A stretch of 64,000 bases of DNA, taken from NCBI RefSeq assembly GCF_030013205.1, contig NZ_CP122648.1; one strand, 5' to 3'. Every line of letters starts with the position of its first letter. Position 1 is the first letter of the stretch. Shown here one piece after another: positions 58,174 to 60,416 of this stretch. The notes under the pieces are model-generated. The model had not been told where the DNA came from and ran no database searches. It worked only from the letters and a program-made list of their open reading frames with translations. Made by a program: the position numbers and the translations under genes. The DNA is from Escherichia coli (GTDB taxonomy: Bacteria; Pseudomonadota; Gammaproteobacteria; Enterobacterales; Enterobacteriaceae).

Positions 58174-60416
58174 ATGAAACTGAATGCAACTTATATAAAA
58201 ATACGTGATAAATGGTGGGGCTTCCGCTGTTCCTGCCTTCTTTAATCTTGCCCATTTTCGCCCACATTAATACTTTCGCGCATATTTCTTCCGGTGAGGT
58301 TTTTCTCTTTTATCTGCCTCTGGCTCTGATGATCAGCATGATGATGTTTTTCAGCTGGGCGGCATTGCCAGGGATCGCCTTAGGGATTTTTGTCCGCAAA
58401 TATGCAGAGCTGGGTTTTTACGAAACGCTCTCATTAACGGCTAATTTTATTATCATTATCATTCTCTGTTGGGGCGGTTACAGGGTCTTTACTCCCCGGC
58501 GTAACAACGTTTCACATGGTGATACCCGTTTAATTTCCCAGCGTATATTCTGGCAGATTGTGTTTCCTGCAACGCTGTTTCTGATACTTTTCCAGTTTGC
58601 TGCGTTTGTAGGATTACTGGCGAGCAGAGAAAATCTGGTCGGCGTCATGCCTTTTAACCTCGGGACCTTAATCAATTATCAGGCCTTACTGGTGGGCAAT
58701 CTGATTGGTGTCCCGCTGTGCTACTTCATCATTCGTGCAGTGCGAAATCCGTTTTATTTACGTAGTTATTATTCGCAATTAAAACAGCAGGTTGATGTAA
58801 AAGTCACCAAAAAAGAGTTCGCACTCTGGCTACTGGCATTAGGTGCTTTACTGCTGCTGTTATGCATGCCGTTAAATGAAAAAAGCACAATTTTTAGCAC
58901 CAACTATACCTTGTCATTATTGCTGCCCCTGATGATGTGGGGAGCGATGCGCTATGGTTATAAGCTAATTTCGCTGCTCTGGGCGGTCGTGTTGATGATC
59001 AGCATCCACAGCTATCAAAATTACATTCCCATTTATCCTGGCTATACCACGCAGCTGACCATAACCTCCTCCAGTTATCTGGTATTCTCTTTTATTGTCA
59101 ATTATATGGCTGTACTGGCAACCCGTCAGAGAGCGGTAGCCAGACGCATTCAGCGGCTTGCGTATGTGGACCCGGTGGTTCATCTGCCAAATGTTCGCGC
59201 CCTGAATCGCGCGTTGCGTGATGCCCCCTGGTCTGCGCTTTGTTATTTACGCATCCCTGGCATGGAAATGCTGGTTAAGAACTATGGCATCATGCTGCGG
59301 ATTTAATACAAGCAAAAACTTTCTCACTGGCTGTCACCCTTGCTGGAACCGGGTGAGGATGTTTATCAGCTTTCGGGTAACGATCTCGCGCTGCGACTGA
59401 ATACAGAATCGCACCAGGAGCGCATTACCGCACTGGATAGCCATCTCAAGCAATTTCGTTTCTTTTGGGATGGAATGCCGATGCAACCGCAGATTGGCGT
59501 CAGTTACTGCTATGTGCGCTCGCCAGTGAATCATATCTACCTGCTGCTGGGAGAGCTAAATACGGTCGCCGAGCTTTCCATCGTGACCAACGCCCCTGAA
59601 AATATGCAGCGTCGCGGGGCAATGTATTTGCAACGCGAATTGAAAGATAAAGTCGCGATGATGAATCGGCTACAGCAGGCGCTGGAACACAACCATTTTT
59701 TCCTGATGGCCCAGCCGATTACCGGTATGCGTGGCGATGTCTACCATGAAATTCTTCTGCGTATGAAAGGTGAGAATGATGAACTGATCAGCCCCGACAG
59801 CTTCTTGCCGGTCGCGCACGAATTTGGTTTATCGTCGAGTATCGACATGTGGGTCATTGAACATACGCTGCAATTTATGGCTGAAAACAGAGCGAAGATG
59901 CCCGCTCACCGTTTTGCCATTAATCTGTCGCCAACCTCGGTATGTCAGGCTCGTTTTCCCGTTGAAGTCAGTCAGCTGCTGGCTAAATATCAGATTGAAG
60001 CGTGGCAACTTATTTTTGAAGTCACCGAAAGTAATGCTCTGACCAATGTTAAGCAGGCGCAAATCACCTTGCAGCATCTTCAGGAATTAGGCTGCCAGAT
60101 TGCGATTGATGATTTCGGCACCGGCTACGCCAGCTATGCGCGGCTTAAAAATGTGAATGCCGATCTGCTTAAAATTGACGGCAGTTTTATCCGCAATATT
60201 GTGTCAAATAGTCTGGATTATCAGATAGTGGCGTCGATTTGCCACCTGGCGCGAATGAAGAAAATGCGGGTAGTGGCAGAGTACGTTGAAAACGAAGAGA
60301 TCCGCGAGGCGGTGCTCTCTTTGGGGATCGATTATATGCAGGGTTATCTTATTGGTAAGCCGCAACCGTTAATTGATACGCTGAATGAAATCGAACCCAT
60401 TCGCGAAAGTGCCTGA
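58174..60416 (+). pseudogene. pdeF: c-di-GMP phosphodiesterase PdeF/YfgF (MASE1 + degenerate GGDEF + EAL) with in-frame stop and 5' frame problem
   Basis: Two same-frame ORFs (58212-59306, 59340-60416) separated by a single TAA at 59304-59306; upstream ATG at 58174 is out of frame with the main ORF; C-terminal half contains an EAL-type domain. Confidence 0.65.

Follow-up and report, generated by a model that had tools for sequence, protein, structure and literature searches.

The pdeF (yfgF) gene in the stretch of Escherichia coli DNA analyzed here (64,000 nt of contig NZ_CP122648.1, hereafter the window) is broken by two lesions, a nonsense codon and a one-nucleotide deletion, and very probably represents a genuine, vertically inherited pseudogene characteristic of the porcine edema-disease/post-weaning-diarrhoea lineage, including O139:H1 ST1.

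Identity of the locus and nature of the two lesions

The pseudogene extends over positions 58174-60416 on the plus strand, from the native ATG to the native TGA (2243 nt, with the stop of the pdeF frame at 60414-60416), and matches PGAP-annotated pdeF pseudogenes with 100% identity. It is flanked by yfgG and a small annotated 50-aa ORF on one side and by the convergent ppx ORF (60455-61996, minus strand) on the other, and the yfgG-pdeF-ppx order is conserved among the annotated neighbors in six genomes, including K-12. In 5,415 of 5,426 genomes, the match covered 80% or more of the query with an identity of 95% or higher, with pdeF annotation throughout among the matches listed. Pfam analysis of the intact sister allele located a MASE1 domain at residues 15-320 (E-value 1.5e-70) and an EAL domain at residues 498-730 (E-value 5e-71), and returned no Pfam match for the degenerate GGDEF middle region. 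The assignment to pdeF/yfgF made in a preliminary description of this DNA is thus upheld by position, sequence identity and domain content. What the locus lacks is the uninterrupted 747-codon frame and, judged from its sequence, it is a pseudogene of the known pdeF family, not a functional member.

The K-12 protein PdeF (YfgF, WP_000772731.1; MASE1/degenerate GGDEF/EAL) is encoded at the same locus with ~98% nucleotide identity, and both MASE1 and EAL remain recognizable in the window, where the conceptually repaired protein differs from that of K-12, the stop aside, in four residues only (V189A, A209V, V323A and L699R). Unlike K-12 PdeF, the frame in the window is broken twice, at codon 16 and by Q378*, so that the full-length protein cannot be made.

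Alignment of five RefSeq genomes to the window defined both lesions. The nonsense codon, TAA at 59304-59306 (plus strand), lies in the degenerate GGDEF/linker region, 5' of the entire EAL domain, and separates two ORF halves that, as had been noted from the translation (...MLRI*YKQKLSHW...), share one frame. The change from CAA to TAA proposed earlier is borne out by comparison with K-12 and with the human faecal strain 7/2, relative to both of which the window carries C>T at 59304 (Q378*). The deletion, in turn, has reduced an ancestral run of five G residues, present as GGGGG in 7/2, EC556 and K-12, to a G4 run at 58217-58220 (plus strand), shifting the frame at codon 16, at the very start of MASE1. 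Translation from the native ATG at 58174 (MKLNATYIK...), correctly described as not sharing the frame of the main ORF, consequently reaches its first stop, TAA at 58243-58245 (plus strand), after 23 codons and yields the peptide MKLNATYIKIRDKWWGFRCSCLL.

Two homopolymer runs between 58197 and 58219 had been suspected as the site of the frame disruption. This holds for the G4 run, which spans 58217-58220 and does not end at 58219, but not for the A-run, which is identical in K-12 (TTATATAAAAATACGTGATAAATGGTGGGG[G]CTTCC); the K-12 alignment otherwise displays the same two lesions. Likewise, the gene was thought to be 2 nt short of encoding a 747-aa product, whereas only 1 nt is missing, intact alleles measuring 2244 nt (747 codons plus stop) against the 2243 nt found here.

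The closest intact allele, that of strain 7/2 (NZ_CP023820.1, WP_001521043.1), carries G5 and CAA, is annotated as intact, and differs from the window at two positions in 2,351 nt, both of them disruptive. Since pdeF is otherwise unchanged relative to this allele, the inactivation appears to be recent. The 7/2 gene matches the inferred ancestor of the pig allele exactly, even though the regions flanking pdeF in 7/2 and the pig lineage diverge by 0.6% over the first 11.6 kb and by 1.5% over the next 11.4 kb; this discrepancy between gene and flanks suggests a recombination mosaic around the pdeF locus.

Recurrence of the lesions in independent assemblies

The distribution of the two lesions in complete E. 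coli genomes was determined by exact matching of 81-mers centered on the TAA codon and on the G4 run. TAA was found in 17 of 5,406 complete genomes, the hosts of which are all pigs or wild boar, sampled in France, Belgium, Japan and South Korea. G4 occurs in 17 of 5,407 genomes, comprising 14 of the 17 TAA carriers and three duck isolates from China. W13-16, ETEC1748 and K_EC180 carry the PGAP label "frameshifted; internal stop" for pdeF, identical genomes from France and Belgium among them, whereas EC556, a Japanese strain that has retained G5, is labeled "internal stop" alone. The RefSeq pseudogenes KZW92_RS09360 (W13-16) and QDW92_RS06805 (ETEC1748) are 100% identical to the window, and the differences between the window and the porcine O139:H1/ST1 and ETEC genomes lie elsewhere, for example at 62610 in ppk1. 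It had been considered that the same sequence might be found in strains with functional PdeF; every RefSeq carrier inspected is, however, flagged as a pseudogene. In a public assembly collection, the 364-aa product that requires both G4 and TAA was present in 81 blocks and the 377-aa product of the G5+TAA state in 46 blocks, mostly on contigs of 10-200 kb, two of which start at the IS1 insertion site described below, a break typical of short-read assemblies. In each of the eight G4+TAA loci read, the pdeF sequence is the same as in the window.

The preliminary description left undecided whether the lesions are pseudogenizing mutations or homopolymer sequencing errors, and the loss of one G from a run of five is indeed typical of long-read homopolymer error. 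The possibility that G4, and perhaps also TAA, was miscalled and that the strain has an intact pdeF is nevertheless extremely unlikely, considering that the same G4+TAA sequence recurs in French, Belgian and Korean genomes, in the 81 blocks of the assembly collection, and in two hybrid assemblies, W13-16 and P15-25, which are O139:H1 ST1 edema-disease strains sequenced with PacBio RSII plus Illumina and assembled with Unicycler (PMC8798679). Homopolymer error, moreover, does not produce a substitution such as C>T, which is shared by 17 of 17 genomes. The platform is known for W13-16 and P15-25, the draft/Logan assemblies being taken as short-read from their contig sizes, and the base calls of the window itself rest on identity with other assemblies.

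A 23-kb downstream flank shared by four assemblies from four laboratories, compared by pairwise megablast with BTOP parsing, provides a further measure of sequencing accuracy. Three SNPs in this region separate EC556 (G5) from W13-16, ETEC1748 and K_EC180 (G4), and two of them (33188 and 40584, numbered as in the EC556 locus) represent derived states common to the G4 genomes when 7/2 is used as outgroup; G4 thus follows a clade marked by shared derived SNPs. The compared region contains 13 G/C runs and 67 A/T runs of at least five bases, and the only indels among the four assemblies are the one in the pdeF G-run and a private A6>A5 in K_EC180, the remaining 12 G/C runs being invariant. The K_EC180 indel, a 1-nt loss in the A6 run of pdeF corresponding to window positions 58804-58809, could itself be an error of the suspected kind and represents either a third hit or an assembly error. 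Reproducibility in independent assemblies and platforms and congruence with phylogeny, both found for the two pdeF lesions, decide the question in favor of real mutations and against sequencing error. Judged from these comparisons, both lesions are genuine, and TAA and G4 should not be "corrected".

The pseudogene is already known as a RefSeq annotation and is in this sense an ordinary finding; a literature search retrieved no paper describing a pdeF/yfgF pseudogene in E. coli lineages. The pdeF lesions are of use mainly for checking sequence quality and for marking the lineage, and no long-standing question is opened by them.

Order of events in the pig lineage

The markers at this locus are nested, TAA (17/17) being followed by G4, then by a prophage between guaA and yfgI, and then by IS1 in yfgH. 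Most G4 genomes have the prophage, W13-16 being without it, and within the prophage carriers IS1 is found in the window, in ETEC1748, in K_EC180 and in draft contigs that break at this site; it is absent from W13-16, EC556 and 7/2. The most parsimonious order would therefore be Q378*, loss of the G, prophage, IS1.

In the first step of the history that we propose, C>T at 59304 created Q378*, leaving the code for a 377-aa membrane protein that consists of MASE1 only and from which the EAL catalytic domain is gone. The G5 run at codon 16 then became one G shorter in a sub-clade, which introduced a stop after 23 codons and removed the MASE1 fragment as well. Later in the same sub-clade, a phiV10-like prophage inserted at the guaA 3' end, and IS1 entered the neighboring yfgH. 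Together, TAA, the G loss, the guaA prophage and the yfgH IS1 constitute ordered markers that place a strain within the O139:H1/ST1 pig-pathogen clade.

The prophage (26234-55361, ~29.1 kb) has the 17-bp direct repeat ATTGAGTGGGAATGATT on either side (26217-26233 and 55362-55378) and shows, in parts, 93-98% identity to the phiV10-like podophages phiV10, HEMP4 and O157 typing phages 9 and 10. Compared with the copy in ETEC1748, the prophage of the window is without ~6.4 kb, including the tRNA-Arg and the portal region of that copy, and because of this missing segment it is probably defective. The IS1 element (56367-57134, 768 bp) has duplicated 8 bp of target sequence, GTTGTCTA (56359-56366 and 57135-57142). 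Its target yfgH is an outer-membrane lipoprotein gene located two genes upstream of pdeF and is the second inactivated gene in this neighborhood.

Residual coding potential

Two ORFs remain on the plus strand of the broken gene. The first (58212-59306) comprises 364 aa and corresponds to MASE1 minus its first 13 residues, PF05231 being recognized in public assemblies; the second (59340-60416) has a TTG start and comprises 358 aa with the degenerate-GGDEF remnant and the complete EAL domain, PF00563 being recognized on the called product. The TAA-only allele specifies a product of 377 aa. No Shine-Dalgarno-like sequence precedes the ATG at 58212 (duplex energy +0.6 kcal/mol), and the 358-aa ORF is probably not translated. 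Downstream of the TAA codon, only the ATG at 59481 (codon 437) is preceded by a weak Shine-Dalgarno-like sequence (-6.4 kcal/mol), a score that ~5% of gene positions reach by chance. We therefore regard the locus as non-functional, although there is a slight chance that translation restarts at a low level at ATG 58212 or ATG 59481.

That the locus retains a partial function, either because the G-run is switchable by phase variation or recoding or because the ATG at 59481 gives rise to a soluble, sensor-less 311-aa EAL phosphodiesterase, is very unlikely. Both G4 and G5 states do exist among close relatives, and the Shine-Dalgarno-like sequence at ATG 59481 does precede a complete EAL domain (residues 498-730) whose coding sequence shows no further damage. 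However, an intact EAL is what would be expected of a very recent pseudogene, and the chance frequency of the initiation score weakens the case for a restart. The two G-run states, for their part, are each stable within clades and unmixed, and the downstream TAA blocks any product in which the frame has been restored. A programmed frameshift or recoding site could thus be ruled out, G4 being derived and rare (17 of 5,407 genomes) and followed by an in-frame TAA. A phase-variable contingency locus was rejected likewise, the tract comprising 4-5 G with each state fixed in a SNP-marked clade; known contingency tracts are far longer than G5.

Functional consequences and the question of selection

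YfgF was reportedly described by Lacey et al. in 2010 as anaerobically expressed. A study on the uropathogenic E. coli strain CFT073 refers to PdeF/YfgF as a c-di-GMP phosphodiesterase whose activity has been verified by experiment (PMC3484386). Deletion of yfgF in CFT073 resulted in more epithelial adherence and in less biofilm in no-salt LB, and the adherence phenotype was complemented by a heterologous functional phosphodiesterase (PMC3484386). In Salmonella, YfgF exerts a c-di-GMP-independent effect of MASE1 on aspartate responses that requires the motif KKE213-215 (PMC3718329), and this motif is kept in the 377-aa product (translation ...VKVTKKEFALW...). The Q378* allele would thus encode a membrane-bound MASE1 fragment without catalytic domain, and the later frameshift would strip this fragment of its native start. 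We infer from the two lesions that PdeF activity has been lost, leaving the lineage with one fewer c-di-GMP phosphodiesterase, the anaerobic PdeF, and without the c-di-GMP-independent function known for the MASE1 domain of YfgF. This loss could bear on adherence and biofilm formation in the anaerobic gut and, by analogy with CFT073, raised adherence in an F18-fimbriated pig pathogen is conceivable.

Genes of c-di-GMP turnover decay in host-restricted Enterobacteriaceae, as exemplified by the GGDEF/EAL pseudogenes of Shigella. From general knowledge, the inactivation of pdeF resembles these in being a lineage-specific point inactivation in a specialized pathogen, with the difference that a single gene was examined here.

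The G4 run outside the pig lineage occurs in isolates from ducks. In strain BL12 (NZ_CP079780.1), pdeF at 2998-5240 has the same G5>G4 change at codon 16 and is annotated "frameshifted"; GS04 and BHD6 share this change on a K-12-like pdeF, and these Chinese duck isolates have 4.59-Mb genomes. Over 5.1 kb the identity of the duck allele to K-12 amounts to 99.6%, and another 11 public contigs contain this allele; the duck-lineage deletion arose independently of that in the pig lineage. BL12 also has prophage lysis genes adjoining yfgI.

These observations raise the question of whether positive selection favored the loss of pdeF in a pig-gut pathogen, the removal of an anaerobic phosphodiesterase leading to more c-di-GMP and adherence, and the second hit eliminating a residual MASE1-only protein that would still interfere with aspartate responses. 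The only two changes in the gene are both disruptive, whereas nonsense mutations make up 4.2% of the possible substitutions in pdeF, and the same G-run deletion has appeared independently in ducks; the adherence phenotype of the CFT073 deletion mutant and its complementation by a functional phosphodiesterase, as well as the retention of KKE213-215 in the 377-aa product, also speak for this reading. Conversely, the sample amounts to two events, a G5 run is intrinsically prone to indels such that mutation bias may account for its recurrent deletion, neutral decay predicts that a gene already dead will be hit again, and the CFT073 and Salmonella phenotypes were recorded in strains and under conditions other than those of ST1. 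We consider pathoadaptive loss unlikely on balance: the recurrence in ducks and the disruptive character of both changes are a hint at selection, and would be accounted for just as well by a mutable G5 run and the ordinary decay of a dispensable gene. The more specific proposal of a two-step selected loss in the edema-disease lineage, first of EAL and then of MASE1, with G5 as a recurrent off-switch target in gut-adapted E. coli, at which the independent duck lineage hints, is improbable too; if true, it would link host colonization to the anaerobic control of c-di-GMP.

Further features of the window

An island that comprises sinH, encoding an intimin-like inverse autotransporter, sinI, and a gene for a 2,680-aa "adhesion domain-containing protein" is located between der and xseA at approximately 10149-21520 of the window, coordinates that were carried over from the ETEC1748 annotation with an offset of +6382. 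Both the pig lineage and strain 7/2 carry the island. Relative to its closest complete relatives, the window has T for C at 62610 (ppk1), an extra C at 13397 and an extra A at 47103, which could be private mutations or base-call errors; its strain is accordingly distinct from each of the genomes compared in detail. Lastly, the 38-bp gap between the stop codons of pdeF and ppx contains a perfect GC-rich inverted repeat at 60423-60447 (gcgggccgaca tttc ttgtcggcccgc) which, read by eye from the sequence, looks like a bidirectional terminator.
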